43,656 nucleotides of DNA from a virus: IMG/VR virus record IMGVR_UViG_3300010352_001565, positions 179,055 to 222,710 of that record; one strand, written 5' to 3'. The notes beneath the pieces were generated by a model. That model made no database searches. It saw only the letters and a list, made by a program, of their open reading frames with translations, and was not told the origin of the DNA. Each line of letters begins with the position of its first letter. The stretch's first letter is position 1. Of this stretch, positions 359 to 31,668 are shown piece after piece. Made by a program: the position numbers and the translations under genes.

Positions 359-1354
359 ATGAAATCTGTTTACATGGAACAGCGCGGATCATCCGGCGAT
401 GTTCAGCACAACAAGTTTTTTGAGCTCAAAGACGACGGTCGCACCGTGATCGCCACCTGGGGAGCCATTAACACCAAAGGACAATCAAAGGTCCTTGTGG
501 AATCGGAAGACCCTGCAGTACGCCAAGCGGCGTGGGACAAAAAGTTCAAGGAAAAAGCTCACCGCAAAGACAAGCCTTACGTCGTCATTAAAAAGGACGG
601 CGAACAGGTGGAAGACCGCCCATCTGCTGACGGGCGGCGATGGGGATTGGAAGTTGAGACCCACTCTAACCTGGAGCTTCGCGAGATCGCAAGGCGCATG
701 CAGGAACGCGGTCTTAAAGTCAACCTTGAATCGGGGCGCTACTTCCACTCGACAGGCGCAACATGGGATATTAAGCGCGACGGGTCATGCGGGTATGAGT
801 TCGCGAGCCCAATTTCCTCTGGGGAGCGCGGAATTTTCGACGCCAAAGTCGCGGTCGAAAAAATCCGAGAAGTTTGCCCGAACGCTGTGAACTCTAACTG
901 CGGCGTGCACGTGACTGTAGATGTCTCGGACCACAGCCCTCGAGACCTAAAGCGCCTTGCTGTTGGCTATCTCCGCGCACAGGAGCACTTCTACACTCAG
1001 TGCAACGAGTCGCGCCAGCAAAACCGCTACTGCAAGCGCAACCCGACGCAGAACATCAGCCAAATGATCGCCATGCACCCGGACAGCATCCAGCGCATTC
1101 TTGATCTTGCTGGTGGATGGAGAAACCACGATGACCGCTACCATGGTCTAAACTTCACCAGGGTCTTCTCGATCAAGGTTGTTGAGTTCCGCATGCTCGA
1201 ATCGACTGTGGCCATCCGCAAGGTTGGCGCGTGGATCGAGATGTGCGTGGGATTTGTGGACGGTCTCAAGAAATCCGGCGTCGAGTTCAAGTCAACGGGA
1301 CAGTTCTCAGAAGAGACTTTCAACCGCATACTTTCAGGAACCTTTACTGTCTAA
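359..1354 (+). CDS. amidoligase (GCS2 / COOH-NH2 ligase, glutamine-synthetase-like fold), paralog A
   Basis: Three motifs characteristic of the phage 'putative amidoligase enzyme' family are present in order: G-hEhE (WGLEVETH), G-hHhxh (CGVHVTVDV) and hEhR (VVEFRMLEST). ORFs 1739-3157 and 11647-12708 share the same three motifs in the same order. Confidence 0.6.
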   Translation: MKSVYMEQRGSSGDVQHNKFFELKDDGRTVIATWGAINTKGQSKVLVESEDPAVRQAAWDKKFKEKAHRKDKPYVVIKKDGEQVEDRPSADGRRWGLEVETHSNLELREIARRMQERGLKVNLESGRYFHSTGATWDIKRDGSCGYEFASPISSGERGIFDAKVAVEKIREVCPNAVNSNCGVHVTVDVSDHSPRDLKRLAVGYLRAQEHFYTQCNESRQQNRYCKRNPTQNISQMIAMHPDSIQRILDLAGGWRNHDDRYHGLNFTRVFSIKVVEFRMLESTVAIRKVGAWIEMCVGFVDGLKKSGVEFKSTGQFSEETFNRILSGTFTV

Positions 1355-1357
1355 CTT

Positions 1358-1732
1358 ATGGAAAAGAAGAAATCGCCAGGTCAACTCGCGTACGAAGCCC
1401 ACCACGCTTACCTCAATAGCAACCCCGATTTCAGGTATGATTCTAAATCGCCTTGGGAGAACGCTACTGAGGATGTGAAAAAGGCATGGGAACTTGGCGC
1501 GGCTGCGTGCCGCCGTCCTTTGGCTGAAAAGCTCTACAGCGCGAGGCATTACGTTACCCGTCTCCTTATCTGCTATCGGGATCACCTACTTGGGACCTGG
1601 TACGAAGACACCGCAAAAGGATGCGGCATCTCCGCGGATGGATGCGGGTTTCTCGAGCACACCTACCGCTGGGACAATCCTGGCGATAAAGGTGCCGATA
1701 AGGTTGTGGATGCGCTTGCCAGTTCTGACTGA
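1358..1732 (+). CDS. hypothetical protein (124 aa) inside the amidoligase cluster
   Basis: The ATG is 4 nt after the upstream stop. Composition is coding-like. I recognise no motif. Confidence 0.5.
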   Translation: MEKKKSPGQLAYEAHHAYLNSNPDFRYDSKSPWENATEDVKKAWELGAAACRRPLAEKLYSARHYVTRLLICYRDHLLGTWYEDTAKGCGISADGCGFLEHTYRWDNPGDKGADKVVDALASSD

Positions 1733-1738
1733 CGTGAT

Positions 1739-3157
1739 ATGCCTCGGACTAAGCTAACATACGGAATCGAGTTGGAGTGCACTAAGCTCATGCCCAACGC
1801 GGCTGAGATCATTGCACGCCGCGAGTTTGACAACCATTACGACAACTCCATCAAAGGAAACGATGGCGAGGATCTCCCGCGCGGAGAAGGTGGCGGATCT
1901 GAACTCGTCACCAAGCCTCTGATCATTGAAGCTTACTTGCACGATCGCAAAGCCGTGCTGAACGACCGGAACGATACCAAAGCGGTTGTCCGCGACCTGT
2001 GCAGCTGCGCGCAGTCCGTAAACAAATCGTGTGGTCTGCATATCCACATCGGCTGTCCGCTGGAGAGCACTGGGCGTAGCACTCAGATGAGGAGCCGCTG
2101 GAATCCAGAGCAGACGCGGACGTTTCTCGCCATCGCGCTTGCTCTCGAGGATAAGATGTTTGACCTCTGCCCTCCGAGCAGAAGGAACAACAGCTACTGC
2201 AAAACGATTCGCGAGTTATACACCAACGCAGAGCTTGAGGCCTTTCACCCCACGGGAGAAGTTGTCGCCCGTAAGTGGGACAACGCCAAGCGCTACTGCT
2301 GGTTTAACATCGTCGAGACTCTCCGGATTGACAACGTCCCGTCGTCTCCAGGAACCGTCGAGATTCGCATGCTTGGAGCAGTGCGCAGGTTTGAATACAT
2401 TTGGTCCTGGATTAACCTCTGGCTCAAGATCGGAACTTATGTGGCATTTGCTACTCCAGCTTCTGCGATAATGAGCTGCGTACATTCTGGGGCGCTAGAC
2501 GAGGACATTGAGGCAGTGAGGACCGCGAAGAATTCGAAAGTTTCTCCGGCCGCTGAGCGGTCTCCGAGCATTTCGCGAATTGACGACGAGCATCCGAGAA
2601 ACGGCAGGTCTTTGCCTGTGTTCAACCCTACTCACCAAGCGTGGGAAATTCCAGCGACTCCAAGCTGGTCAGAGTTTCCTGGTGGTGCTGAAGACGGCGG
2701 ATACTCGGGAACGCAGATCAGATACTCTGACAGTGCGGAGACCGACAGCCAGCGGCAACAACGAATGGTTCAGGATTTAGTGAACGCATCTCAGCGGTCT
2801 CGCGAGGTGGCCCAAGCGGCTCCAGCTCCTGCCGCAACTCCAGCTCCTGCCGCAACTCCTGCTCCCGCTCCAGAACCCGCACCTTTACCCCCTCCTCCGC
2901 AACGACGACGAGGGCTTAGGCCGATTCAAGAGCGCATTCGCGATGCTGTTCGAGCTGAGCGCGCAAATGCACAGCAGGAGAACGCGCAGCAAGAGGAGAA
3001 CGTTCAATCAACTCCTCCATCCTACCGCGTGGTTGGAACATCCACCGGTCGATTAACTTCTTCCGGATCGAACGTGACTAGCAGACCGCGAGAGGAGAGC
3101 GAGGGCGGAGACCACTTTAGCGTCCTTGACTACGATGGCTTTGGCGAGCACTATTAA
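1739..3157 (+). CDS. amidoligase paralog B with a Pro/Ala-rich low-complexity C-terminal extension
   Basis: Carries YGIELECT, CGLHIHIGC and VEIRMLGAV. In the amidoligase / gamma-glutamyl-cysteine-ligase-2 fold these correspond to the metal-binding Glu pair, the His pair and the ATP-binding Arg. About 150 C-terminal residues are AAPAPAATPAPAATPAPAPEPAPLPPPP-like, encoded by an 18-bp tandem repeat at about 2821-2870. Confidence 0.6.
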   Translation: MPRTKLTYGIELECTKLMPNAAEIIARREFDNHYDNSIKGNDGEDLPRGEGGGSELVTKPLIIEAYLHDRKAVLNDRNDTKAVVRDLCSCAQSVNKSCGLHIHIGCPLESTGRSTQMRSRWNPEQTRTFLAIALALEDKMFDLCPPSRRNNSYCKTIRELYTNAELEAFHPTGEVVARKWDNAKRYCWFNIVETLRIDNVPSSPGTVEIRMLGAVRRFEYIWSWINLWLKIGTYVAFATPASAIMSCVHSGALDEDIEAVRTAKNSKVSPAAERSPSISRIDDEHPRNGRSLPVFNPTHQAWEIPATPSWSEFPGGAEDGGYSGTQIRYSDSAETDSQRQQRMVQDLVNASQRSREVAQAAPAPAATPAPAATPAPAPEPAPLPPPPQRRRGLRPIQERIRDAVRAERANAQQENAQQEENVQSTPPSYRVVGTSTGRLTSSGSNVTSRPREESEGGDHFSVLDYDGFGEHY

Positions 3158-3202
3158 ATAGTTGCAAAAAAGTGTTTACAATTTTCCGTGGCGTGATATA
3201 GT
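3155..3202 (+). promoter_or_regulatory. conserved phage promoter copy 2
   Basis: The sequence is aatagttgcaaaaaagTGTTTACAattttccgtggcgTGaTATAGT. An ATG at about 3209 opens a 14-codon leaderless mini-ORF that overlaps the start of the GATase gene. Confidence 0.65.
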
Positions 3203-3240
3203 AACAATATGAATTTTGAATTTAACCAAAAGGATAAACG

Positions 3241-4278
3241 ATGTGCGCAATAATTGGTTGGGCCGGAAAGATCCCAAAAGGCCTGCTGACCCGCATGCTG
3301 ATCGGGGCTGAAACCCGAGGCAAGGATTCGACTGGACTCGCTTTTCGAGCAGTTGAAGATGGGAAGACATGCAATCTATGCTATCGCCACATCGTCCCTG
3401 CCCGCACCTTCGTTGACATCCACAAGGACTTCGTGGGAGACGCCCGGCGTTCATTCCGCGGCATTGCTCACACTCGCAATGCATCTCCTGGAATGCCGAT
3501 CGATAACTCGAACGCGCACCCATACGTCTATCCGTGGGAAAACATGGGCAAGTATTACTTTGCGCACAACGGGCGAATCCAAAACTGGAAAGTTATCAAA
3601 GCGGAGCAGATTGAAATCTACTCCAGAGAGCTGAACGAGCTGATCTCAGAATTTGTGGCGCTTACGGCATCTGGCGAGAAGCCAATGACCGCTGAAGAGG
3701 TTAAGGTCGTCCTGACTGCCCTTGCGAAAGCTGAGCGCGAGCCTGTCTCAAAAGAGCAGGATGCTCTGAAAGCACTCGCTGAGGACAAGTTCAACGCCGC
3801 TCAGGGAATCGCCGCCCGTCTTCGCTACGTCGAAAATGCGACAACAGACTCGATGATTCTCGGACCGTGCATCGAGAACCGCGACTTCAGCGAAGTTGAC
3901 GGTTGCATGGCGCTGGTCTGGATGAAAGCAGACAACGTCTATACCTTCAGGAGCGCTAAAGAAGCTGTTGCGGCGACCGTCGTTTGGAAATACAAAAAGC
4001 CAGCGTCCGGAGAACCGGCAGACGACCAGCTTGTCACCATTGTTGCCAGTACGAAAGAGATTATCGAGAAGTCATTCGACAAAATCGCGGACGCTGTTGA
4101 CTCTGACATCGCGTTCATCAACTACGACGAGGGGCGCATTTACCGGCTTATGCCCAACACCATGGTTGATGAAGGGCGCGTTCCTGTCCACCAGGCAATT
4201 GAGGACGAGTTTTCATCATCGGTCGTTGAAACCGAAACCGCTGAGCAGATCAAAATTGAAGACGCGGGAACCAAATGA
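3241..4278 (+). CDS. class-II (Ntn-hydrolase) glutamine amidotransferase-like protein
   Basis: The N-terminus is MCAIIGW, so Cys becomes residue 1 after Met removal, the nucleophile position in GATase type 2. It also has HTRNASPG and YFAHNGRIQNW (an HNG-I-N-like motif). An AAGGA RBS lies 8 nt upstream. Confidence 0.6.
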   Translation: MCAIIGWAGKIPKGLLTRMLIGAETRGKDSTGLAFRAVEDGKTCNLCYRHIVPARTFVDIHKDFVGDARRSFRGIAHTRNASPGMPIDNSNAHPYVYPWENMGKYYFAHNGRIQNWKVIKAEQIEIYSRELNELISEFVALTASGEKPMTAEEVKVVLTALAKAEREPVSKEQDALKALAEDKFNAAQGIAARLRYVENATTDSMILGPCIENRDFSEVDGCMALVWMKADNVYTFRSAKEAVAATVVWKYKKPASGEPADDQLVTIVASTKEIIEKSFDKIADAVDSDIAFINYDEGRIYRLMPNTMVDEGRVPVHQAIEDEFSSSVVETETAEQIKIEDAGTK

Positions 4279-4664
4279 TCTCTGAGCTTCATCCAACTAT
4301 CAAGTGCATCAAGTGCGGCTCTCTTGTAGAGATGGCGCGCGTCCGAATCTTCGGCGCGCACGATCCATCAGGGCGCACTTGCGCGGCGTGCGCCCACAAA
4401 GCGCAGCAGACGACGCTTGAAAGGATACGCGAGAAGAAAGCTCAAGCACAGAAAGTTCCTGACCACGAGGATCGCAAACCAAGGCAGCTGTCTTTCGGTA
4501 ACCAGATGCTAGAAGCGTTTGGCATTCCAGCGACCGCCGCTGCGGTTCGGCGCCAAAGGAAGTGGTCTCCCACCGTCTACGTATTACGGAATGGAAGATG
4601 GATACCAAAAAGCCAGGACGTTGGTAAGCCAAAAATCAATCGGATCTACGACGATGAACATTAA
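4275..4664 (+). CDS. small zinc-ribbon protein (CxxC...CxxC)
   Basis: An ATGA overlap with the GATase stop indicates translational coupling. CIKCGS ... CAACAH form a Cys4 ribbon. Confidence 0.5.
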   Translation: MISELHPTIKCIKCGSLVEMARVRIFGAHDPSGRTCAACAHKAQQTTLERIREKKAQAQKVPDHEDRKPRQLSFGNQMLEAFGIPATAAAVRRQRKWSPTVYVLRNGRWIPKSQDVGKPKINRIYDDEH

Positions 4665-5529
4665 AGAGCTTGCGTACGGCGCGTTTCAAAGTGGGATCTA
4701 CAAAAAGAACATCCACTACCTGTTCGACAACGACGACTCTATGCAGTTCATGATGGTCAAGCAGATGGCTGGGTCGCCAGGCATGACAACATGGATCACA
4801 CAGCGCGCCTATTCGAAAGCAGGAATCCAGATTCAAGTGGAGAAGGACGTCTCGCTGGATCTCGAGGCAACTGACTTTGTCGCTGAGGCGGCGACGGTTG
4901 AGAACGTCCAGTGGCCATCCCCTGTTATCGAACTCTACTTTCAGGACCCAAAGCTTCCGACCATTCTGCTGATGAAAACGTCGCCAGCGCAGGTTGCCGA
5001 GTGGTTTCCGTATCTTGAAGTCGCGCTAGAAGCTGAGTGGTACATCACCGCTTTGATTCAGGAAGGCTCGAATGAGCTGGGGAAAGTGCTCAGCGTCCAG
5101 CTAAAGCCAGATATGTGGGACGAGTTTCTGACAACCGGAGAAACCGAGAAAATGGCAACCGGTTTGATGAGCTACAACTTGTCTGAGGTGGACAACGCAT
5201 CGATGTCCTACATGCTGAACCTGGCGCTCAAGGTCCTTGCTCTCGCGTCCATTCCAGGGTACAAACCCACGCCGATGTCTCGAAAGCAGATGCACGAGGG
5301 AAAACCAGGCGTCAAAGGACGGCCGAACATGCCGTCATTCCTGCTCTCGTACGGCCAAGCTCCGCTTGCTCCTCCTGTACGGCACGAAACCTCCGGGCGC
5401 CTGTTCAAAGGACGTCGCGGGCACATCCGGTGGTACATGGACCCCCGCTATACGAACCGGAGATTCACCTGGGACTTCATTAGGCCTGTCAGGGATCCAA
5501 AGACAGGAAAGTATCCAGACAGGAGTTAA
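4654..5529 (+). CDS. hypothetical protein (291 aa); the ORF-track start at 4519 is probably too far upstream
   Basis: The in-frame ATG at 4654 (MNIKELAYG...) avoids a 145-nt overlap with the previous gene. I recognise no domain. Confidence 0.45.
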   Translation: MNIKELAYGAFQSGIYKKNIHYLFDNDDSMQFMMVKQMAGSPGMTTWITQRAYSKAGIQIQVEKDVSLDLEATDFVAEAATVENVQWPSPVIELYFQDPKLPTILLMKTSPAQVAEWFPYLEVALEAEWYITALIQEGSNELGKVLSVQLKPDMWDEFLTTGETEKMATGLMSYNLSEVDNASMSYMLNLALKVLALASIPGYKPTPMSRKQMHEGKPGVKGRPNMPSFLLSYGQAPLAPPVRHETSGRLFKGRRGHIRWYMDPRYTNRRFTWDFIRPVRDPKTGKYPDRS

Positions 5530-5535
5530 AAGCTC

Positions 5536-5553
5536 CCCAGGAACAATCCTGGG
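5536..5553. terminator. hairpin between convergent genes (CCCAGGA-acaa-TCCTGGG), likely a terminator for the minus-strand operon
   Basis: A 7-bp GC-rich stem sits immediately after the stop of the minus-strand gene and is followed on that strand by AGCTTTTAA. Confidence 0.4.
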
Positions 5554-5769: not shown

Positions 5770-5770
5770 A

Positions 5771-7189: not shown

Positions 7190-8211
7190 ATCACTTTCTT
7201 CAAAAAGACTTCGTTGCGGCTGTTGTAGTATTCAAGCGTCCAGTATTGCTGGATGGCGTAGCCAATGCGGCGCCAGAATTCGAATGAATCATCTACAGTT
7301 TCTGTCGCGATCTCAAAATCAGAGGGAGAGAATCCGTGCTGATTAAGAACTGTCTTGACAGCAATCGGCATCATGCGCTCTTTCGTCTTGAAAACATACT
7401 GAGCTCTCCTGTTGCTTCTCTTTAGTTCCTTCAAAGTCTGACAAACGCTGAACCGGTGGCGCTGGACCATCGGAGTCCCAGTAGGCTCATTAAGGTGCGG
7501 GGTAAGAATGGTCTCAACATAGCAGGCGTCGGTGGCAAGCCAGATGGGGCTAAGAGAAAGCTCCTGCATATTGAACAGCATTGGAGCAGGATCTCCAGAC
7601 GACCTTATCTTGTATCCCACGATGAAACTTCCAGCGATGATTTCGCTATTGAGCATCTGTTTCTCGGCGTCGGACGTTTTCTCTTTTCCGAGAAGTGTGT
7701 CAATGGCCTCAAGGTCAAACGTCCCGTACTTCTGGACGCACACAGAGCGGTACAGCTCAAGCCGGTGATTGGCGCGATCTCCGAACAGCATGTTGGCGTA
7801 AAACTTCCTGTCTGGAGAAGCCTCGCGGTAGCCTATCATGTTGGTCAGGATGTATAGGCGAAGAGAGCAACCGGCGTCGCTAGCAGCCTGCTCGACTCGC
7901 TGCTTTGCATCTTTTACCCGAAGTAGAGAGTCACCTTTGGTTTTGTAGACAGTTTCGTAGCAGGATTCGTACAGCATCGCCAGACTGTCGGCCTCTGGGT
8001 CTTTAACTGGGAGATCTCGAAGCCCTTTTGGAACAAAGTTGAATCTCAGTTTGTCTAAAGGAATGCGTCCTTTTCGCCGTCCAAGAGCTTTCTGGCACTC
8101 TTCAGCATGTTCGCACTTTGAGCAAAGTTCGTCTTTTCCGAACTCGAATCCGTAGCAGGGGCGTGGAGTTTGTATGGGGATGCGTTCAAGCATTGCGTTC
8201 TTTGAGAACAT
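7186..8211 (-). CDS. helicase-associated protein with an N-terminal Cys4 zinc ribbon; possible primase
   Basis: It is coupled to the helicase by an ATGA overlap at 7186-7189. The zinc ribbon is CYGFEFGKDELCSKCEHAEEC. I found no clear TOPRIM or AEP motif, so the primase call rests on context only. Confidence 0.35.
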   Translation of the reverse strand: MFSKNAMLERIPIQTPRPCYGFEFGKDELCSKCEHAEECQKALGRRKGRIPLDKLRFNFVPKGLRDLPVKDPEADSLAMLYESCYETVYKTKGDSLLRVKDAKQRVEQAASDAGCSLRLYILTNMIGYREASPDRKFYANMLFGDRANHRLELYRSVCVQKYGTFDLEAIDTLLGKEKTSDAEKQMLNSEIIAGSFIVGYKIRSSGDPAPMLFNMQELSLSPIWLATDACYVETILTPHLNEPTGTPMVQRHRFSVCQTLKELKRSNRRAQYVFKTKERMMPIAVKTVLNQHGFSPSDFEIATETVDDSFEFWRRIGYAIQQYWTLEYYNSRNEVFLKKVM

Positions 8212-11200
8212 GGAAAGAGCCGCTCGAAAGCCAAAGCAGATATACCTTGACCCTCAGGGACAGCAGTTGAGTCTTAAAGATGTCGATAAGAAATGGCGAG
8301 ACACCATCATCTATCACAACGGAACTGAAAATCGTGGCGGAAACATCGTCACCACATTCGACCCAGAAAACCCGCTAGGAACGCGGCTCCTAGAGCCTGG
8401 TCCTGATTCTCCGGTGTGCGCTAAGTGCGCGCTTTACGAGCAAGGAGCTCAGCACCCGTTCATGAAGCCGTTTGGTGCCGAGGACCCACTAGTGACGGTG
8501 GTATTTGACTCGGTGTCTGGAAAGGAAGACTCGCGCGGCGAAATCGGATCTGATGGGCCTCCAATGCTGATTCGGAAGCTGGTTCAGGAAATGGGGTTTG
8601 ACGCATCTCGAATACGATGGGCGCCGGCGACTCTTTGCTCCGCCAGGACTGGAAAGCTTCCAAACTACTCGACTAAGGGAAACCACTGCAAAATCCATCT
8701 TATTCAAGACATCGAGCAGCACCCACCGAAGATGATCATGACCGTTGGAAGCGCCGCTCTCGGACTTCTGTCGTTCAAATCGAATGCTCAAGACTGGGGT
8801 GGCCGCGTGCTGACGTATCGCGGATGGCCGGATGACTGGCTGACAGATCCTGATTACATGCTTGACCGACCTGATCCGCGCGATCCAAAGACATCTCTCA
8901 CGCGCGGACATCCCATCATGGGAAAAGCTCCAGAAGGCTTCCGAATTCCCATCGTTCCGATTCAGAGCCCGCGCATGGTTTACATGACGCAAAACCAGAA
9001 TGTCATCAAGCGCTGGAAGTCTCACGTCAAGACCGCGTTCGAGATGGCACTTCAGGGAGTTCCTCCTAAGGTTTACGACCGCGCCTATTGGAACATGAGC
9101 GTCGATCCAGACGAGATTGCTGAAAATCTCCTCTACTTGATCAACCACCCAGGAACGCTCACCAGCTACGACACTGAAACAAACGGCGTCAGACCTTGGG
9201 CAGTGGACGCTGCGATCGTGTTCATGATGTTTCGATGGACTGATGAAGATGGCAACCCGAAATCGATTGGCTTCCCGTGGAACTACCCGAACAGCCCGCT
9301 GATCAACTATCTCCCAGAGCTCGCGCCGCTCGTCCTTGAAGCTCTGTATGCCTCAGACCTCATTGGACACAACATCACGTTCGACGTCTTGTTTACCTAC
9401 GCAAACGTGCCTGGGGCCAACCTGGTTAAGCTAGCGAATGCTGCAAAATGGGATACCTGGCATATGGCATACGTCATGCGCCAGCAGCGCGGAACGTTGG
9501 GCTTGGAAATGATCGCTTACGAGTGGGTGCCTGACCTTGCGGGCTACGAAGAGGACATGACCCTCTTGATTGAGCTGCTCAGAGACCTGTTACATCCGGG
9601 AGCCGGAAAGGGAGGCCACTACGCCAACTGCCCGCGCGATAAGTGGGACACCCACCTCAAGCCCTACGTCATGGGTGACGTCGAGGTGGCTTACTGCGCA
9701 AAACCGAAGATTGAGGCCAAGCTTGGAACTGCCAGAACTTACCGAATGCCGCTGGCAGACCCAACCCGACGCGGTCGATTTCGCTTGTTCGAGCCGCCAC
9801 CCCGAAGCTGGGTTTATCCGAACGTTGTATCTCCAGCCGCGCGGATGCTCATGAATATGATGGGTCGCGGCATGCACGTGGACATCGAGGAGCTAGCGCG
9901 CCAGGAAGACATTTTTCCGAAGAAGATTAGAGAAGCTCGCGACAAACTTCGAGCGGTCGACCCGAAGATTATCGAGTGGTGCCAGCAGATGGAGGAGACC
10001 GAGCCTGGATGGGAGCTTGACCTTGAAAAGAAAGAGCACCTCAAAACAATCCTGTTTGACAGCAGACTTCTAAATCTTCCAGTCAATCGCATCACTGAGA
10101 GCGGGCAGAAGCTCTTTGGAGATACCCCAGAAGACTTGCAAGGGCTTCCGCGCGAGAAGCTGGTCGAATACGCGGCGCTGGACAAGTTCACGCTGAACAT
10201 GCTGTCAGTCGAGCATCCTCAGGTTCGGCCTCTCCAGGAATACAAGAAAATATTCAAGGCGTATACCACCTACATTCGCCCACTTCGCAACGCTTTCTCA
10301 GACAAAAAGCATGGTGGCGTTGATAAGAAACGCCGCATGGAGATACAGCACCTTATGCGAGACGGCTGCGTGCACGCCAGCTTCAAGCTGACTGGAACGC
10401 GCGGAGGACGCTTGAGCTGCTCTGATCCGAACCTTCAGCAGCTACCTCGCGACGGTTTAATTAAACGCATTTACACCAGCCGCTTTGGAAAAAGAGGGTG
10501 CGTCTACCAAGGCGACCTTTCTCAGATCGAATTGCGCCTTCTGGCTGCAGCTTGCGGAGACTCCTCAATGGTGGATGCTTATCAGCGCGGCATCGACCTG
10601 CACGCCCTGACTCACAGCAAGATTTACAGCAAGGCATACGAGGAATGCACCAACGAGTTCATGGAATGGCTGCAGGCGCACGGCAGAGACTCTGAAGCAA
10701 AGAAAGTCAAGCTCGAGCGCAAAGCCGCAAAGGTCGTTAATTTCTTGACAGGCTACGGTGGAGGAGCTTTCGGTCTACAAACCGCTCTGGCAAACGACCA
10801 GATCTACAAGACGCTTGAAGAGTGCGAAGCTCTGCTTGAGGCGTTTTTCGATGGCTATCCAGCAATGCGCCGCTACCTGTCTTACTACAAGGACTTCATC
10901 CAGCAAAATGGCGTGGCCGTGTCGATTCTCGGACGCGTTCGCATCTTTGAAGAGGTGTTTGGCGATGATCCTAAGGCGAAAAACAAAGCGCTGCGCGCTG
11001 GTTGCAACCACCTGATTCAGTCCACTGCTTCTGACTTGATGCTTATCTGCTTGACGGCTATCGAGAACATCTTGACGAACGAGGGCCTTGAATCTCAGAT
11101 GGTCTGCACGGTGCACGACTCTCTTGTGGTTGACGCTGTGCGCGAAGAGCTGCCTGTTGTCCACGACATTGTCTACGGGGTGCTCAACAACATCCCTGAC

Positions 11201-11365
11201 GTGCTCAAGCTCACATTTGGTGACAACTATGACACGTCATGGTTGTCATTTGTTCCTCTGGCTGGAGATTGCGAAGTTGGTCTCAACTACCTCGATGCGA
11301 AGAAAGTTCCTCAGCACGGCGAGATTGACTGGGACAAGCTTTTGGCACCAGCAGCCGCTCACTAA
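8174..11365 (+). CDS. family A DNA polymerase with an N-terminal family-4 UDG-like domain and a 3'-5' exonuclease domain
   Basis: The exonuclease motif is SYDTETNG. The polymerase motifs are RLSCSDPNLQQLPR, KVVNFLTGYGGGAFGL (motif B) and VHDSLVVD (motif C). The N-terminal ~250 aa resemble UDG family 4 (GEIGSDGPPMLIRKLVQEMGF...WAPATLC, HPP), but the GEAPG-type motif A is degenerate (DSVSGKED). Confidence 0.85.
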   Translation: MGMRSSIAFFENMERAARKPKQIYLDPQGQQLSLKDVDKKWRDTIIYHNGTENRGGNIVTTFDPENPLGTRLLEPGPDSPVCAKCALYEQGAQHPFMKPFGAEDPLVTVVFDSVSGKEDSRGEIGSDGPPMLIRKLVQEMGFDASRIRWAPATLCSARTGKLPNYSTKGNHCKIHLIQDIEQHPPKMIMTVGSAALGLLSFKSNAQDWGGRVLTYRGWPDDWLTDPDYMLDRPDPRDPKTSLTRGHPIMGKAPEGFRIPIVPIQSPRMVYMTQNQNVIKRWKSHVKTAFEMALQGVPPKVYDRAYWNMSVDPDEIAENLLYLINHPGTLTSYDTETNGVRPWAVDAAIVFMMFRWTDEDGNPKSIGFPWNYPNSPLINYLPELAPLVLEALYASDLIGHNITFDVLFTYANVPGANLVKLANAAKWDTWHMAYVMRQQRGTLGLEMIAYEWVPDLAGYEEDMTLLIELLRDLLHPGAGKGGHYANCPRDKWDTHLKPYVMGDVEVAYCAKPKIEAKLGTARTYRMPLADPTRRGRFRLFEPPPRSWVYPNVVSPAARMLMNMMGRGMHVDIEELARQEDIFPKKIREARDKLRAVDPKIIEWCQQMEETEPGWELDLEKKEHLKTILFDSRLLNLPVNRITESGQKLFGDTPEDLQGLPREKLVEYAALDKFTLNMLSVEHPQVRPLQEYKKIFKAYTTYIRPLRNAFSDKKHGGVDKKRRMEIQHLMRDGCVHASFKLTGTRGGRLSCSDPNLQQLPRDGLIKRIYTSRFGKRGCVYQGDLSQIELRLLAAACGDSSMVDAYQRGIDLHALTHSKIYSKAYEECTNEFMEWLQAHGRDSEAKKVKLERKAAKVVNFLTGYGGGAFGLQTALANDQIYKTLEECEALLEAFFDGYPAMRRYLSYYKDFIQQNGVAVSILGRVRIFEEVFGDDPKAKNKALRAGCNHLIQSTASDLMLICLTAIENILTNEGLESQMVCTVHDSLVVDAVREELPVVHDIVYGVLNNIPDVLKLTFGDNYDTSWLSFVPLAGDCEVGLNYLDAKKVPQHGEIDWDKLLAPAAAH

Positions 11366-11412
11366 AAATAGTTGCAAATAAATGTTTACAAATTTTAGTT
11401 TCGTGATATAGT
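11363..11412 (+). promoter_or_regulatory. conserved phage promoter copy 3
   Basis: The sequence is aaaatagttgcaaataaaTGTTTACAaattttagtttcgTGaTATAGT. The -10 sits inside the palindrome CGTGATATagtcATATCACG. The ATG at 11422 is 9 nt after the -10. Confidence 0.7.
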
Positions 11413-11421: not shown

Positions 11422-11643
11422 ATGAGCACAGCAAACGTGGAAAACATGACATACGAGCAGCTTCCAAAGCAAGCTCGAATCATTGCCCAAATTTTAGTCC
11501 TTCATCCTGACGCTACCCGCGCCAAGCTTGAGGAGCTCGTTCAAGCGAGGATCACAACTCGCCAGCCTATCGCACGCGTGATCAACTACTATTGGTCCCT
11601 GCTTGTCAAGCTCGGATACACCACGCAACCTGTCGCCGCCTAA
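11422..11643 (+). CDS. small hypothetical protein (73 aa), first cistron of the operon that contains amidoligase C
   Basis: The start is leaderless, directly after promoter copy 3. Confidence 0.5.
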   Translation: MSTANVENMTYEQLPKQARIIAQILVLHPDATRAKLEELVQARITTRQPIARVINYYWSLLVKLGYTTQPVAA

Positions 11644-11646
11644 TTT

Positions 11647-12708
11647 ATGCCTAACAACGGACCCATACCTTCATACGCCAGTGAGAGACTCATTGGACTC
11701 GAGCTCGAGTACGACGCAAAAACCACCAAGCTCAGCTTGCCAACGACGACACCTTCTGGCTGGTCGCGGCAGTCTGACGGCAGCCTGCAGAATGGCGTTG
11801 AGATGGTGCTCAATCCTCCTCTGACGCTGACAGATGCAACTCCAGTGGTCAAAGAGTTCGCTGACGCTTTCAACCGAGCCCGGACAAACACCTTCAGCAG
11901 CGGCGGCTTCCACGTTCATGTTCAGGTTGCGGATTACACCGAGCATGACGCCGGAAATCTCGCTCGCCTCTACCACCATTTTCAGACGCAGATTAACCGG
12001 TTGCTTGGAAAATCTCGCCACAACAACCACTACTGCCCTCCGTTTACGCACTCCGTGACAGATGCCGATCTTTCGTCGAGATTTAATCTCGGCTCGCTTG
12101 CCAGCACGAGAGCCAGCGCCAAGTCTGCCCGCAAATACCAAGTGGTGAACTTCGCAATGATGCGGTGCACTCGCCACAGCGACCGCACGGTGGAATTTCG
12201 CCAAGGAAGCACCACAAAGCGGTTTGAGTGCATCATTGGCTGGGCGGCATTCTGCGTTGCCATGGTTGAAATCGCCAAGAACGACGCCATGACCAGCGCT
12301 TACATCGGTCAGCAAGCGTCGTGGGAAAACTTCGTGCAGATGCTTCGCGACCACGAATCCATGGTTGGTGCCAGCCACATTGCTGACTGGGTGGTTTGGA
12401 GACGCGAATATCTCGAAGAGACACCGAGCGACGAGCTCATCTCAAAAGCAGTTGCCGCTATGGGACGCCGTCCTCGCGGAATCTTTCACATCTCGCGCGC
12501 TCTCGACATCAACTTGCCGCTGAGCGAGCGGACTCTAAACGCCGCCGTTTCTCGCGGTCTGATTGCTAAGATCGGATCGAAATACCAAGCAAAGTTTGTC
12601 TCATTCGCGGGGTCAGATCTTGAGCAGCTTCAACAAGCCGCGGAAGCCAGGGAGGCAGCTATGCCCGCTGACCGCTCAGGCGAGGTTCTACCTGGAGAGG
12701 AACAATAA
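11647..12708 (+). CDS. amidoligase paralog C
   Basis: Carries IGLELEYD, GGFHVHVQV and VEFRQGSTT, the same three-motif architecture as ORFs 359-1354 and 1739-3157. Confidence 0.6.
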   Translation: MPNNGPIPSYASERLIGLELEYDAKTTKLSLPTTTPSGWSRQSDGSLQNGVEMVLNPPLTLTDATPVVKEFADAFNRARTNTFSSGGFHVHVQVADYTEHDAGNLARLYHHFQTQINRLLGKSRHNNHYCPPFTHSVTDADLSSRFNLGSLASTRASAKSARKYQVVNFAMMRCTRHSDRTVEFRQGSTTKRFECIIGWAAFCVAMVEIAKNDAMTSAYIGQQASWENFVQMLRDHESMVGASHIADWVVWRREYLEETPSDELISKAVAAMGRRPRGIFHISRALDINLPLSERTLNAAVSRGLIAKIGSKYQAKFVSFAGSDLEQLQQAAEAREAAMPADRSGEVLPGEEQ

Positions 12709-22952: not shown

Positions 22953-22961
22953 GCGGTTTAG

Positions 22962-23026: not shown

Positions 23027-23053
23027 CAGTTACCGAGAGCAGTAATTAAAGCG

Positions 23054-23653: not shown

Positions 23654-23654
23654 T

Positions 23655-24182: not shown

Positions 24183-24186
24183 CAAC

Positions 24187-24645: not shown

Positions 24646-24646
24646 C

Positions 24647-25120
24647 ATGAACGAGTTGTCAAACATCGAAAAGATCTGCTACGGAGAAGCCGGAAAGCTC
24701 TCTGCTGGTGACAAGAAGCTGCTAGCAAGCCTGGCCGCAGAGTTTGGAGTTTCTGAGCAGGCGGTTTATTCTGCCATTCAGCGAGCATGCGACAAGCTCG
24801 GGGATACCAATCCGACATCTGGTATGCGCGCTGAGTCTCGCAAGACGTCATCCCTGGTATCGAAGATCCTCGAGGGCTGCGAATGCGAGCACCCCGAATC
24901 CTCTAACGCCCCTGAAGAGAAGAAAGAGGTTCAGCTCGCCAAGAAGATCCTTGATGCCCTTGAAATTATGACCGCAGGCGGTCCTCAAAACAGAGAGGTT
25001 GAAGGCGAAAACCCTTACGAAGTGATCGAAAAAGCGGCCAAAGAGCTGATCAAGATGCACGGAGGTGAGGTGCCTGGTGGAAGCATGTCTGATGAGGAAC
25101 CTGAAGGCGATGAGAAATAA
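24647..25120 (+). CDS. hypothetical acidic protein
   Basis: It starts 2 nt after the upstream stop. Confidence 0.45.
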   Translation: MNELSNIEKICYGEAGKLSAGDKKLLASLAAEFGVSEQAVYSAIQRACDKLGDTNPTSGMRAESRKTSSLVSKILEGCECEHPESSNAPEEKKEVQLAKKILDALEIMTAGGPQNREVEGENPYEVIEKAAKELIKMHGGEVPGGSMSDEEPEGDEK

Positions 25121-25134
25121 CGACTTCGAGAAGA

Positions 25135-25812: not shown

Positions 25813-25872
25813 GGGGGACTTCAACCTCTTGGTTGCAGCACCCGAAGACTAGCACAGTTCCAGTTTCACCAA

Positions 25873-25903
25873 CGGCGCTCCGTAAGGGCGCCGATTTTAT
25901 TTC
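25873..25903 (+). terminator. rho-independent terminator
   Basis: CGGCGC-tccgtaagg-GCGCCG followed by ATTTTATTT. Confidence 0.5.
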
Positions 25904-26092
25904 CTTCTTGCACACTGGGCATATTGGGGGCTTCACACCTGTCAGTTGCTGCGCCGCACTCTTGATCGCGCCCATGGTCAAACGAACGCAGACGTAGAAG
26001 GTTACAGCAATGAGGGAAGCCAACCCACACATGAGGACTACCCAAAAGCTGATTTCGCGCGCAATATCCATACTCTTTTGGAGAACAAAACT

Positions 26093-26136
26093 TTTTTGCA
26101 AAAAAGTGTTTACAAATTTCCGAAACGTGATATAGT
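26093..26136 (+). promoter_or_regulatory. conserved phage promoter copy 4
   Basis: ttttttgcaaaaaagTGTTTACAaatttccgaaacgTGaTATAGT. The ATG at 26143 is about 8 nt after the -10. Confidence 0.7.
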
Positions 26137-26142
26137 CATCCC

Positions 26143-26358
26143 ATGATCGTGAACAACACAACTGAAAACGAAGTTAAAATGAGCCAATTTCGCTGCCCTC
26201 ATTGCGACGCCATTCTGCGCGTCCAAGAGCGCGGATCAGTGGTTCACATCTACTGCGCCAACGGTCCCTGCCCGCAGGTTTTGAACGACGGCGCGTCTGC
26301 CTCGTCCGAGGCTGAAGCTTTCGCGGCTCTTGAAAACAACTACGACGAACAAGCCTAA
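26143..26358 (+). CDS. small zinc-ribbon protein (CPHC...CANGPC)
   Basis: Its leaderless N-terminus MIVNNTTENEVK matches the mini-ORF MIANN... after promoter copy 5. An alternative start is the internal Met (MSQFRCPHC). Confidence 0.5.
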   Translation: MIVNNTTENEVKMSQFRCPHCDAILRVQERGSVVHIYCANGPCPQVLNDGASASSEAEAFAALENNYDEQA

Positions 26359-26359
26359 C

Positions 26360-26827: not shown

Positions 26828-27011
26828 GCGCGCACAGGTTGACGAGAATCGGCTGCGATGGCGTAGGCAGACGCCAGTCGATTCTCAGACGCAGCGCTCA
26901 GTTGCGGGTTGTATCGCCGATCCGCAACACTAATTTGGTTAAATTATGGCGTCGGCAGCGGCGAGAAACTCCGCTACCTGAAATGCCAAGAATGCGACCG
27001 ATTTTTGAGAT

Positions 27012-27086
27012 GCTCCCGTAGCATAGTGGTTATGCGCCAGACTCTAAATCTGTTTTACGCCGGTTCAATCCCGGCCGGGAGCACCA
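27012..27086 (+). tRNA. tRNA with anticodon CUA (amber suppressor; identity unknown)
   Basis: Manual cloverleaf: 7-bp acceptor stem (GCTCCCG/CGGGAGC), D-arm gcat-agtggtt-atgc, anticodon stem ccaga/tctgt with loop C-T-CTA-A-A (U33 and A37 are canonical), a 5-nt variable loop, T-arm gccgg-TTCAATC-ccggc, discriminator A and an encoded CCA. Confidence 0.7.
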
Positions 27087-27103
27087 ACTTTTGTAGGTAA
27101 AGT

Positions 27104-27466
27104 ATGAAAAAACAGAAACCAGGAAGTAAATCTCGTAAGCTCATTGAGGCAGCGGAAAAGTCGCAGACGCCGCAGACGCTGTTGCCCGGCGACTACGTCC
27201 GCCTGATCGGCGGCGAAGAGATCCCTGATGAGTTCGGAGTGATCGAGTGGGATGAGGGAATATCACCGCTTGGTGAGCATTTTTACGTGGTGCAGGTTGA
27301 TCCAAAATGCATCCACGACGAGGACGATGATGGCGCGCGTGAGGTCACGCAAGATCAGATCCAGTTCATCCGCCGTGGAAAGGGAACATTCACCGGTAAG
27401 CAATCTGCCGGCGTCAAGAGGGTGAGAGACTACCTTCAGGCGCACGGACAGGACCAGAAAAACTAG
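27104..27466 (+). CDS. hypothetical protein (120 aa) ending in TAG, in frame with the downstream PTH2 gene
   Basis: Its ATG is 18 nt after the tRNA. Its TAG stop is at 27464-27466. Confidence 0.5.
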   Translation: MKKQKPGSKSRKLIEAAEKSQTPQTLLPGDYVRLIGGEEIPDEFGVIEWDEGISPLGEHFYVVQVDPKCIHDEDDDGAREVTQDQIQFIRRGKGTFTGKQSAGVKRVRDYLQAHGQDQKN

Positions 27467-27520
27467 TGTACAACTCAACAAAGAAAGCATATTCTTATGA
27501 ACATGAATACCCACACGTAG

Positions 27521-27907
27521 GTGTCTGAACCGGCCGCTGATCAAACCATGCGGCTGTACGCCATCGCTCATGCCAACCTCGGCATGGGAACTGGCAAACT
27601 CGCTTCTCAATGCGGTCACGCATTCACTGAAGCGCTTCTTCACTCACAAGAGTTTCAACCTGCTCGTTTTAAGGAATACCGCTCAGACGGGATGGGCACT
27701 AAAGTGGCCCTCTCTGCGAATTCCACCGACGAGATCCACAGCATCAAGTCCAAGTGCGACGAAGCTGGCATTCCGGCGACGATCATCACGGATTCTGGGT
27801 GTGCTAATTTCTTCAACGGAGCCCCGACGATAACCGCCATCGGCGTGGGACCTGCGAAGAGACACGAAGTCAAAAAGATCCTCGGGCGGTTAAAACTGAT
27901 CAACTGA
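27521..27907 (+). CDS. peptidyl-tRNA hydrolase, PTH2 family
   Basis: LGMGTGKLASQCGHA and GTKVAL...GIPATIITDSGCANFFNGAPTITAIGVGP...ILGRLKL align motif by motif with archaeal and eukaryotic PTH2 (LGMGKGKVAAQCSHAA ... [21 protein letters not shown]...VTGHLKL). The track start is a GTG. The first ATG is at about 27548 and has no obvious SD. Confidence 0.8.
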   Translation: MSEPAADQTMRLYAIAHANLGMGTGKLASQCGHAFTEALLHSQEFQPARFKEYRSDGMGTKVALSANSTDEIHSIKSKCDEAGIPATIITDSGCANFFNGAPTITAIGVGPAKRHEVKKILGRLKLIN

Positions 27908-27945
27908 ACTATTAAAATTCAACAAACTGATAGGAAACTAATAAT

Positions 27946-28251
27946 ATGACAACGACAACGAATATCGCTAGCACACCGCTGACCTTCACCACCCGCGAAC
28001 AATACGTCGCTTGGCGCGCCCAGTGGCGCAAGGAATACGCCGAACTCAGCTCCAGAATCCGAAAGGAAAACCTCGCGCTCAAGGACGCCTTCCGCGGAAA
28101 AGGAACGGCTTCCACGTGGACAATCCGGCATAACCTGGTGGTTCTCCGCAGCACCGCCAGAGCCATGCTTGAGATGCGCGCCGCATCGAAGGTCCGCGCT
28201 CAAGAGCAGCATAAAGCGGCTCATCCGACAGAGCTGCTTGTCAGTGAATAA
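27946..28251 (+). CDS. hypothetical protein (101 aa)
   Basis: AGGAAACTAATAAT lies upstream of the ATG. Confidence 0.45.
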   Translation: MTTTTNIASTPLTFTTREQYVAWRAQWRKEYAELSSRIRKENLALKDAFRGKGTASTWTIRHNLVVLRSTARAMLEMRAASKVRAQEQHKAAHPTELLVSE

Positions 28252-28271
28252 ACCCGTGTCTGACTGCACCG

Positions 28272-28301
28272 CGCGCCTGAATGGTAACCCGTTCAGGCGC
28301 G
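28272..28301 (+). promoter_or_regulatory. stable hairpin (10-bp stem CGCGCCTGAA / TTCAGGCGCG, 10-nt loop) between genes
   Basis: There is no T-tract. It sequesters the first in-frame ATG (28281) of the downstream ORF. Confidence 0.35.
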
Positions 28302-28316
28302 TGTAGTTATGGCACG

Positions 28317-29432
28317 ATGTACAAACCTTCACTAGTTGAACAGCTTACCGGAGTACGAATCCCGACTCCGAAGAGCCTGATCGAGTCATTCTGGCGCGAT
28401 GGACAGGCTATCGATATTTTCGTCCCGTTGTATTACACCGCCAATCTTAAAGAGAATGACGGCATGATGACGACGCTCGAGTACATCTCGGCGATTGACG
28501 AGAAAACCGGGTCAACCCTCAAGCAAGATGTCGCTCAGCATTGGGCTGGCATGCAAGAAGATGAGGGCGAAGACGAAGAAGGAGACGAGGATCCTTCTTC
28601 GCGAGGAGACGGACGCGTCGACCGGCATGACTGGCGCTACGAAGGCGAGGACATGACTGACGAGCAGTGGGACGACGCCTTCAACAGCTACGTTAACGAG
28701 AATGGCGGATGGCACCGCTGGTTGGAAGGTTGGAGAGAAAAGAAATCGCCTGCAGCTGACTTTGAAGACGAGAGCGTTATTGAAGGAGTGCTTGAAGCTG
28801 CTCAGGACGACTGGAATGAATCCAACATGGCGCAGTACGCTGAAGATGTTCCCGGTCTGAAGAGCATCCAATGTGTGGACTACGGCCGCGTTGATAAGAA
28901 GGAAAAAGGCGCCATCGGCATCCTGCTGCGCGCTGAGTTCGACACCACCCCCGATGACGCCACTACCAAAGCGCTGGTTGGATGGGTGTCTGGTCAGATG
29001 AGCGACGGTTGGGGTGAGGGCTTCGAGCAGAACGAGTTCGGAAGCCGGCGTGGTGGCATGGGAATCGTTCCTGACGACGAAATCTACGAGTACTGTTCCA
29101 CTTCTGGGCGAGCGGACTATGACTCCAGCTACACAGCAAAATCCACATTCGGCACTGGCGAGAATGGAGTCCGCAACGATTATTCAGTTCCAAGAATGCG
29201 CGACCGCAAGACCATTCCGAGCGGCGTGAAGCAGCTTCCAGGCAAAATGGCGCAGGGAGCCAGAGACATCGGCCGAAAACTTGGTGGTCGCTTTATGAAC
29301 TCTGCGCCGGTTACGCACACAGCGCGAGTTGCAAAGGAGATTCAGCGCCGAGCGACAAACATGGGAAAAGCCATGCGTGGTGAGTCTGAATCTAAAGCGT
29401 CAAAGCTTGTCAGTAAGCTGGTCGAAGAATAA
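28317..29432 (+). CDS. highly acidic, Trp-rich protein (371 aa); candidate DNA mimic
   Basis: Long D/E runs (EDEGEDEEGDEDP, EDMTDEQWDD, EAAQDDWNES). The track ORF 28281-29432 would start inside the hairpin loop, so the ATG at 28317 is preferred. Confidence 0.5.
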   Translation: MYKPSLVEQLTGVRIPTPKSLIESFWRDGQAIDIFVPLYYTANLKENDGMMTTLEYISAIDEKTGSTLKQDVAQHWAGMQEDEGEDEEGDEDPSSRGDGRVDRHDWRYEGEDMTDEQWDDAFNSYVNENGGWHRWLEGWREKKSPAADFEDESVIEGVLEAAQDDWNESNMAQYAEDVPGLKSIQCVDYGRVDKKEKGAIGILLRAEFDTTPDDATTKALVGWVSGQMSDGWGEGFEQNEFGSRRGGMGIVPDDEIYEYCSTSGRADYDSSYTAKSTFGTGENGVRNDYSVPRMRDRKTIPSGVKQLPGKMAQGARDIGRKLGGRFMNSAPVTHTARVAKEIQRRATNMGKAMRGESESKASKLVSKLVEE

Positions 29433-29449
29433 GTCTAAAACAACGCACT

Positions 29450-29478
29450 GGCGCCGTTCAAAAGACGGCGCCTTTTTA
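29450..29478 (+). terminator. rho-independent terminator
   Basis: GGCGCCGT-tcaaaag-ACGGCGCC followed by TTTTT. Confidence 0.55.
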
Positions 29479-29480
29479 GT

Positions 29481-29532
29481 CTCAAAAATAGTTGCAAATA
29501 AATGTTTACAAATTTCCGTAGCGTGATATAGT
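29481..29532 (+). promoter_or_regulatory. conserved phage promoter copy 5
   Basis: aaaatagttgcaaataaaTGTTTACAaatttccgtagcgTGaTATAGT. A leaderless 13-codon mini-ORF (MIANNPASALRAA) starts at about 29539. Confidence 0.7.
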
Positions 29533-29577
29533 AGCGCCATGATCGCGAACAATCCCGCAAGCGCATTACGCGCCGCA

Positions 29578-31668
<2,091 letters not shown>

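Follow-up and report, generated by a model that had tools for sequence, protein, structure and literature searches.

Translation of mRNAs that begin directly with their start codon has usually been regarded either as the curiosity of a single gene, cI of phage lambda, or as the trait of a phylum. The cI mRNA transcribed from promoter PRM starts at the A of its AUG and is translated without a Shine-Dalgarno (SD) sequence. At the level of phyla, at least a fifth of the genes of Actinobacteria and Deinococcus-Thermus and about 13% of those of the analysed Acidobacteria are leaderless (PMC3160421), and the signature published for such genes is a TANNNT hexamer whose first base lies 12 bp 5' of the start codon (PMC3160421; PMC12340547). 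Thermus thermophilus phage phiYS40 is reported to make middle and late transcripts that are mostly leaderless and to shift the balance between host factors IF2 and IF3 in their favour (PMC3594737, citing Sevostyanova et al. 2007). Here we describe a family of at least ten promoter copies in an uncultured T4-like jumbo phage which sets a start codon on the predicted first transcribed nucleotide (+1) with single-nucleotide precision, relatives of the phage doing likewise with diverged promoters. The family was analysed in a 43.7-kb stretch of DNA (hereafter the window; positions 179,055 to 222,710 of IMG/VR virus record IMGVR_UViG_3300010352_001565). The phage measures at least 222 kb, has a genomic GC content of 53%, encodes a heptosyltransferase-family protein and is present in several metagenome assemblies, whose source samples, from peat and wetland, include JGI 3300025867 and 3300025858, SRR4236661, ERZ27257423 and ERZ27257449.

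T4 early transcripts have 5' untranslated regions (UTRs) and T4 genes use SD sequences; to our knowledge, T4 early promoters have not been described as placing a start codon at +1. These promoters combine UP, -35, TGn and -10 elements with extra conserved positions (PMC2988021). In the literature on leaderless transcripts and jumbo phages, transcript mapping of phiKZ and AR9 reports none: differential RNA sequencing of phiKZ found no leaderless transcript (PMC8244752), and the UTRs of AR9 measure 26-491 nt (PMC5312081).

A promoter family with T4-early architecture

Seven copies of one sigma-70-type promoter, P1 to P7, were found in the window, all of them on the plus strand, intergenic and oriented into genes (Table 1). 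Each is made up of an A/T-rich upstream box (AAAATAGTTGCAAAWAAATG), a TTTACA -35 element, a spacer of 16-17 nt ending in the TGn of an extended -10 element, and a -10 hexamer, which is TATAGT except in P1 and P7. Six exact matches were found, against 0.05 expected from shuffled sequences. P4 and P5 are each preceded by an intrinsic terminator, and P2 and P3 directly adjoin the stop codon of the gene before them; a terminator search upstream of P1 to P3 detected none. When three further copies from flanking DNA (see below) were aligned with these seven, the whole element set of the T4 early type (-35, TGn, -10 and A/T-rich upstream sequence) was conserved across the ten copies. By its composition the repeat is a predicted strong promoter of T4-early architecture, and its reader would most likely be the primary sigma factor of the host.

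A full sigma-70-family protein, with regions 2, 3 and 4, is encoded at 3252-4160 of locus L044 (about 51% ligA identity), two genes 3' of ligA, the gene of the NAD-dependent DNA ligase. The sigma-70-family gene is directly followed by a promoter, TTTACA-17-TAAGAT, whose -10 element has an ATG 9 nt beyond it. A tblastn search of the window with this protein gave no homologue, and window open reading frame (ORF) 24647-25120 has only a weak match to sigma region 4 (E = 0.003).

Table 1. Promoters, terminators and reading frames at the seven promoter copies; positions are those of the window. aa, amino acids; GATase, class-II glutamine amidotransferase.
Feature	Position	Strand	Description
P1 promoter	303-352	+	from upstream box onward; -35 TTTACA 324-329; 17-nt spacer with TGn; -10 TAGAGT 347-352
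WGR-amidoligase gene	359-1354	+	331 aa (Pfam); ATG 6 nt past P1 -10, at predicted +1
P2 promoter	3154-3202	+	-35 3175-3180; -10 TATAGT 3197-3202
14-codon mini-ORF	3209-3253	+	MNFEFNQKDKRCAQ, then stop; starts at predicted +1 of P2
GATase gene	3241-4278	+	starts MC...; SD-like AAGGA, -5.4 kcal/mol, one of few in window
P3 promoter	11364-11412	+	-35 11385-11390; -10 TATAGT 11407-11412
73-aa ORF	11422-11643	+	ATG 9 nt past P3 -10; predicted leader 0-3 nt
Terminator-like hairpin with T-run	25873-25893	+	intrinsic, 5' of P4
P4 promoter	26088-26136	+	-35 26109-26114; -10 TATAGT 26131-26136
71-aa zinc-ribbon-like ORF	26143-26358	+	MIVNN...; ATG 6 nt past P4 -10; in-frame TGA 26128-26130
Strong intrinsic terminator	29450-29472	+	9-bp stem and T-run, adjoining upstream side of P5
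P5 promoter	29484-29532	+	-35 29505-29510; -10 TATAGT 29527-29532
13-codon mini-ORF	29539-29580	+	MIANNPASALRAA, then stop; at predicted +1 of P5; TGA overlaps next ATG (ATGA 29577-29580)
39-codon ORF	29577-29696	+	overlaps mini-ORF in ATGA; ends 4 nt before ligA
ligA (NAD-dependent DNA ligase)	29701-31668	+	strongest SD-like sequence of window, GGGGAGG, -11.7 kcal/mol
P6 promoter	35309-35345	+	-35 35317-35322; -10 TATAGT 35340-35345
3-codon ORF	35352-35363	+	GTG AAG AAA TAG; 6 nt past P6 -10
P7 promoter	43160-43208	+	-35 43181-43186; -10 TAAATT 43203-43208
Gene after P7	ATG 43242	+	predicted leader about 27 nt, no SD

In most copies the start codon lies in fixed register with the -10 element

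The gap separating the -10 hexamer from the start codon was read directly from the sequence. It is 6 nt for the ATGs after P1, P2, P4 and P5, 9 nt after P3, and 19 and 33 nt after P6 (ATG 35365) and P7. P6 carries a GTG exactly 6 nt past its -10 element, which leaves P7 as the sole window copy without a start codon at +1. Finding at least four of seven ATGs at the exact position has a chance probability of P = 2e-6, and finding at least five of seven inside a 4-nt window one of P = 1.8e-5. In all four copies with a 6-nt gap to an ATG, a pyrimidine occupies -1 and the A of the ATG is the seventh base past the -10 element; given this gap and the preceding pyrimidine, the A would fall on the usual start position of RNA polymerase. 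The TGn of the extended -10 element provides an in-frame TGA stop codon 15 nt 5' of each of these ATGs, which are therefore the first possible start codons of their frames. The first-pass annotation had placed the ATG 7-10 nt past the -10 element in five of the seven copies, which is accurate when the A itself is counted, and its coordinates and peptides all agreed with the direct reading; the GTG of P6 and the in-frame TGA had escaped it.

The register was tested as a prediction on flanking DNA fetched later from other assemblies of the same phage. Three further promoter copies were found there, with gaps to an ATG of 6, 6 and 5 nt: TATAGT + tctgat + ATG opens a 326-aa amidoligase gene, TATAGT + cctccc + ATG a 195-aa gene, and in a weaker copy, TTTACT-16-TTAGAT, the ATG of a 27-codon ORF follows after 5 nt (P = 7e-4 for at least two exact placements in three). 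The first T of the TANNNT hexamer lies exactly 12 nt before the ATG in P1, P2, P4, P5 and two of the flanking copies, and 15 nt before it in P3. In the alignment of ten copies the six discriminator positions are variable while ATGA at +1 to +4 is kept in seven or eight copies, the start codon being ATG in eight and GTG in one. The pairing of a variable discriminator with a kept ATGA suggests a constraint on the start codon itself rather than the copying of a cassette as a block.

Two further sets of candidates were discarded. A scan of the 42 gene starts of the window for leaderless genes preceded by a -10 element alone returned three candidates beyond the promoter copies, against about 1.3 expected among all 42, and these were not convincing. 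The DNA polymerase gene (plus strand, ATG 8210) and a 341-aa gene (minus strand, ATG 8211) overlap their start codons in the palindrome CATG, so the promoter of each of these divergent genes must lie inside the other; since no -10-like hexamer is present at leaderless distance, a pair of leaderless promoters diverging from that CATG (8209-8212) was ruled out.

Protein-coding starts at the predicted +1

Called genes of 71-331 aa start with the ATG at or near +1 in five copies (P1, P3, P4 and two of the flanking ones), and gene calls agree with the +1 ATG for the flanking 326-aa and 195-aa ORFs. The putative leaderless start that is best supported is that of the amidoligase gene at 359. More than 60 homologues have in common the N-terminus M-x-x-[VI]-Y-[LMAG]-E-[NQ]-R-G, in which the alignment shows Y5 to be nearly invariant and E7 and R9 to be invariant. 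Because this N-terminus is conserved, a stop codon stands in frame at 347 and ATG 359 is the sole start codon between 347 and Y5, ATG 359 is, on this comparison, the true start of the gene.

ATG 11422 is probably a true start too. Homologues of this ORF start 6-10 residues before a conserved LPKQA motif, and the closest of them, P0194, begins MTTNNVDE where the window reads MSTANVEN, codons 3 and 6 differing synonymously. In the contigs that carry P0194 (L045 and L046) the ORF is preceded by a nearly identical promoter with the gap at 6 nt, TATAGT + gccccc + ATG. For the ORF at 26143, a homologue search returned nothing beyond identical copies in the same phage; the contigs sharing it are 99.96-99.98% identical to the window, and substitution patterns in first codons or mini-ORFs are therefore uninformative.

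The register is kept in several relatives with diverged promoters

Fourteen distinct loci carrying an orthologous amidoligase gene with its upstream sequence were compared. In six of them (L005, L010, L011, L014, L018 and L023; protein identity 52-66%) a TANNNT hexamer lies 5-6 nt before the amidoligase ATG, with a -35-like hexamer 16-17 nt above it, and the chance of six of 14 loci keeping this register is P ~1e-8. The -10-like hexamers differ (TAGTAT, TATACT, TACTCT, TATTGT, TATATT and TATCCT), and the distance from their first T to the ATG is about 12 nt in L005, L010, L011, L014 and L023 and 11 nt in L018: the sequence of the promoter has diverged among these relatives while the position of the ATG has been kept. 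At the orthologue of ORF 11422 in L045/L046 the distance is about 12 nt as well. In L005 the ATG of the GATase gene itself lies 6 nt past a TAGGAT, and a further (third) amidoligase gene starts 9 nt past another TAGGAT. In L017 the gene just 5' of the amidoligase gene has TATCAT + 6 nt + ATG. In two other jumbo phages the amidoligase gene is an internal cistron.

SD use and structure of the 5' ends

The energy of the duplex with the anti-SD sequence averaged -1.9 kcal/mol over 42 window genes versus -2.7 kcal/mol for a background of random 20-mers, and genes at or below -6 kcal/mol made up 9.5% versus 11% in the background; only ligA and the genes at 31799, 12708 and 17056 reached this value. 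No SD enrichment was found in relatives L005 and L042-L044 either, their energies equalling background. Neighbouring genes of the window often overlap or adjoin (TAATG, ATGA).

In Caulobacter, measurements showed leaderless initiation to depend on an AUG start codon, which is strongly preferred, a leader of zero length and an accessible 5' end (PMC8459731). For the putative 5' ends, folded as 50-nt segments, opening the leading 16 nt would cost 0, 0, 2.4, 1.2, 1.7, 3.7 and 0 kcal/mol, with a median of 1.2 versus 4.4 kcal/mol for all 655 ATGs of the window (Mann-Whitney P = 6e-4).

Two other motifs were noticed 5' of gene starts. The pentamer RTTCT occurs 12-30 nt 5' of 15 of the 42 starts, where about 2 are expected, most often at -12 to -14 (window 8197-8209, 29688, 32629, 36137, 37994, 22964 and 32621, the last two on the minus strand, among others; also in L042-L044). 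It precedes orthologous genes in relatives, for instance the polymerase gene in three phages, and is at times half of a palindrome, as in GTTCT-TTG-AGAAC directly 5' of the polymerase ATG 8210. It could represent a second class of promoter, a ribosome signal other than SD, or an operator. The motif GTA(T/G/A)TTA(G/A)(G) lies 3-12 nt before many starts across the clade (L042, L043 and L044; window 33610-33629 and 27090-27103), and the window and L043 alike have AGTATTTAGGGC-ATG at their neck-protein gene. Its position recalls the T4 late promoter TATAAATA and, by that analogy, would put transcript starts at or near the ATG.

Short ORFs at P2, P5 and P6

The ORFs opened at the predicted +1 of P2, P5 and P6 are of 3-14 codons, and each stops at or near the next start. 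The first-pass annotation had described a mini-ORF overlapping the GATase start and another upstream of ligA, and both stood up: GATase ATG 3241 lies inside the former, whose TAA (3251-3253) is 10 nt past that ATG, and the latter is the ORF at 29539-29580. Between this one and ligA lies the 39-codon ORF, which had been missed and is called as a gene in L039 and L040. At P6 the TAG (35361-35363) is followed by a C and then by ATG 35365 of a 195-aa gene. Searches with the mini-ORF peptides returned no homologues, and no recognisable proteins are encoded. The supposed conservation of N-termini between MIVNN (26143) and MIANN (29539) survives as near-identity of the DNA, the two being identical at 14 of the 15 positions from +1 to +15, but not as a protein family, since one belongs to a 71-aa ORF and the other to a 13-codon ORF. 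The discriminators of P4 and P5 differ at four of six positions and the sequence beyond the block is unrelated; locus L045 carries a block resembling it, ATGACGACGAACAAC. The resemblance of the three blocks hints at selection on the stretch from +1 to +15.

The folding energy of the 50 nt that start at 3209 is only -1.6 kcal/mol, the 5' end from 29539 has no T-run and just a pair of short hairpins (-9.3 kcal/mol), and no terminator was predicted between either mini-ORF and the gene downstream. Because no attenuator-like structure follows the mini-ORFs, a classical leader-peptide switch at 3209 or 29539 is unlikely. With the upstream stop at or near the next start in all three cases, the arrangement appears to suit translational coupling or reinitiation more than attenuation. 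For mycobacteria, too, short ORFs are reported at the 5' ends of leaderless transcripts (PMC4633059). The idea of a conserved mini-ORF upstream of ligA was discarded: relatives at about 50% ligA identity have ordinary leaders or an internal-cistron ligA, with no mini-ORF kept.

Leaderless expression and alternative explanations

The reading that we favour is that the promoter-proximal cistrons are expressed as leaderless mRNAs whose transcripts start at the ATG, which is probable on the evidence given above. RNA polymerase would start at the seventh base past the -10 element, a purine after a pyrimidine, which is the A of the ATG; the transcript would begin with AUG and have no 5' UTR; and ribosomes would bind the 5'-terminal AUG directly to translate the first cistron. 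A genuine protein gene would begin at the +1 ATG of P1, P3, P4 and two flanking copies. For P2, P5 and P6, where the last uses GTG, the +1 codon would open a short ORF whose stop coincides with the start of the first genuine gene or lies no more than 10 nt from it, and such ORFs would be either relics of the promoter cassette or ribosome loaders for reinitiation at the adjacent start. The systematic leaderless strategy that had been proposed for this DNA is thus backed by the geometry, the new copies, the relatives, the N-termini, the open 5' ends and the lack of SD sequences, all of them arguments from sequence.

Several observations count against this reading. The start sites are predicted from geometry alone; the preferred start site and the capacity for leaderless initiation are both assumed, and the host may differ in them. 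Given the sigma-70-family gene of L044, a phage sigma factor may read the promoter. Two of the five ATGs at +1 open mini-ORFs only. P3 has a gap of 9 nt, and its best-placed transcription start (A at the seventh base, C before it) would give a 3-nt leader, which in tested systems cuts leaderless initiation several-fold (PMC8459731). The ORF at 26143 is without homologues and has an internal ATG at codon 13, a possible start, so that its first 12 codons lack comparison. Among relatives, a leader of about 36 nt precedes the amidoligase gene of L016, and leaders of 31-90 nt, with no start codon at +1, precede ligA in the more distant L042 and L043 (ligA about 50%). No terminator was detected before P1 to P3, so read-through RNAs could carry these genes as internal cistrons, and the internal genes of the phage are evidently translated without SD sequences anyway.

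Of the other explanations, the one that fares best, though somewhat unlikely, holds that the promoters are real but that their +1 ATG came with a duplicated cassette as a passenger, either as part of a start element or initial transcribed sequence or by being copied with the promoter, and that mini-ORF starts play no part in translation. The block shared by P4 and P5 and followed by unrelated sequence, its counterpart in L045 and the lack of homologues of the mini-ORF peptides speak for it, and C-A-T at -1/+1/+2 fits the pyrimidine-purine-pyrimidine start element reported to govern start-site choice and strength (PMC12641261); a 3-bp element, however, leaves the G at +3 (eight of ten copies) and the A at +4 unexplained. 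Nor does a passenger account for the five copies that open called genes, with a conserved N-terminus at 359 and 11422, or for relatives that keep the position of the ATG despite different promoter and downstream sequences, which argues against a single inherited cassette. Discriminators that differ at four of six positions next to a kept +1 to +15 block are unlike a recent neutral duplication, and the joint chance of all three mini-ORFs stopping within 10 nt of the next start is about 0.01 by a rough estimate.

Leaderless expression could be extended into an unlikely but more ambitious proposal, that the clade has abandoned SD initiation altogether and loads ribosomes at the 5'-terminal AUG of every early transcript. 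Where no real gene starts at +1, leaderless mini-ORFs of 3-14 codons would serve as loading pads, from which reinitiation would bring 70S ribosomes to the adjoining gene. In that case the +1 to +15 block ATGAYSRYGAACAA would be an enhancer of leaderless translation, and the peptidyl-tRNA hydrolase encoded at 27521-27907 could handle peptidyl-tRNA drop-off from the minigenes.

It is quite unlikely that the genes are mainly internal cistrons of read-through RNAs, translated independently of SD sequences, with promoter and ATG brought into contact by genome compaction and only a small leaderless share. It agrees with the outcome that no terminator was detected before P1 to P3 and with the start of P2 and P3 at the preceding stop codon, 42 genes without SD enrichment must still be translated, and the many overlapping or abutting genes fit coupling. 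Compaction, however, predicts closeness; it predicts neither the exact 6-nt register of six of the ten copies (5 nt in one more) nor the pyrimidine at -1. Strong terminators, moreover, precede P4 and P5, which would start their own units, the 5' ends are selectively unstructured, and the register is conserved in relatives. That the repeat is no promoter but, for example, a protein-binding or recombination element, which would make its distance to the ATG uninformative, is most improbable: an upstream TTGCAAA box and a conserved spacer (AATTTCCGT.GCG) do exceed minimal sigma-70 needs, but every copy has the full -35, 16-17-nt spacer, TGn and -10, the copies are always intergenic and on the coding strand, twice just after terminators, relatives keep the -35, the -10 and their spacing while the remainder diverges, and T4 early promoters, too, typically have additional conserved positions (PMC2988021).

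Other genes of the window and its relatives

The window encodes three amidoligase-family proteins, a class-II glutamine amidotransferase, a DnaB-like helicase, a family-A DNA polymerase (Pfam DNA_pol_A), a RecA/Rad51-like ATPase, glycosyltransferases, the NAD-dependent ligase and a PTH2 peptidyl-tRNA hydrolase (27521-27907). Window 33630-34454 is homologous to an L044 gene carrying the Pfam domain Phage_T4_gp13 (neck protein), and L006, a 230-kb jumbo phage contig with an amidoligase gene, encodes T4 Gp23. Two window proteins have identical counterparts on a contig of 222,710 nt; together with the gene content of the window, these matches are the basis for assigning it to a T4-like jumbo phage. 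The window is without a close relative among GenBank phages. A megablast search with 12 kb of the window against GenBank phages gave no match, and tblastn with the window polymerase against the same set gave best relatives of only about 25% identity. A search of IMG/VR with the polymerase returned nothing, pattern scans of IMG/VR for the promoter gave matches that tblastn and reading of the sequences showed to be due to chance only, and a scan of GTDB genomes for the host yielded a single irrelevant match.

The amidoligase cluster comprises four genes of the family, one of them fused to WGR (window 359-4278, 11647-12708 and 36149-39262; L050 1755-3603), alongside the class-II amidotransferase, several glycosyltransferases and, just beyond the window, a gene of the thymidylate-synthase family. 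The set as a whole looks like a pathway for hypermodification of DNA bases. The same amidoligase moves between jumbo phages that are otherwise unrelated (L006, L008).

A tRNA with anticodon CTA (amber suppressor) is encoded at 27012-27086 on the plus strand (labelled Pyl by ARAGORN; Rfam tRNA, 64 bits). It lies just 5' of a 120-aa ORF, 27104-27466, which ends in TAG and is in frame with the PTH2 gene, the two being separated by 17 codons bounded by two TAGs. Seven of 41 window genes end in TAG, and a check of the window for TAG readthrough or recoding found this pair as the sole suggestive case; 4279-4519 is not coding-like. Within the 503-aa ORF 39732-41243, positions 40542-40898 hold several families of imperfect direct repeats of 27-46 nt, 65-78% identical. 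A solitary HNH endonuclease gene (32164-32607, minus strand) lies between the ligase unit and the following operon. The DnaB and polymerase genes of L005 (13368-15776 and 16660-20994) carry intein or homing-endonuclease domains, which the window versions are without.

Comparison with described systems

The register offers a rule for finding true starts from sequence, namely the first ATG 6 nt past TGnTATAGT with an in-frame TGA upstream. SD-based gene callers are unreliable for these phages and will misplace starts. The copies would amount to compact cassettes of promoter plus start codon, open to testing in vitro, and they hint that the host translates independently of SD sequences. Should the mini-ORFs pass ribosomes to the next gene, this would be a new use of leaderless initiation.

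The mini-ORFs resemble known cases of translational coupling in the placing of their stops, one of which overlaps the next start (ATGA at 29577-29580), one adjoins it (TAG-C-ATG at 35361-35367) and one lies 10 nt past it (3241). A review lists 70S scanning as a third mode of initiation (PMC9031893). The mini-ORFs differ from known coupled systems, where the upstream ORFs are normal genes with their own ribosome-binding sites, in being putatively leaderless and only 3-14 codons long.

With the leaderless genes of Actinobacteria and Deinococcus-Thermus the copies share a -10 element whose first T lies 12 nt before the ATG, the AUG start codon and the lack of SD (PMC3160421; PMC12340547). In contrast to the -10 alone that precedes those genes, the phage copies have a full conserved -35 element, TGn and upstream box, and belong to a phage promoter in multiple copies. 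PhiYS40 is similar as a large phage with systematically leaderless mRNAs; its leaderless class is reported to be middle and late, whereas in the present phage it is T4-early-like and has a -35 element (PMC3594737). With T4 early promoters the family shares all four elements plus extra conserved positions (PMC2988021).

In lambda, leaderless translation concerns one regulatory gene, cI, and the phage is temperate with a host that uses SD sequences; the present family, in contrast, has at least ten promoter copies and belongs to an SD-free jumbo phage of lytic type. Leaderless initiation is thus already known from lambda cI, phiYS40, Actinobacteria and Deinococcus; the novelty would lie in the fusion of start codons to a T4-early-like promoter family, in a clade of SD-free jumbo phages.

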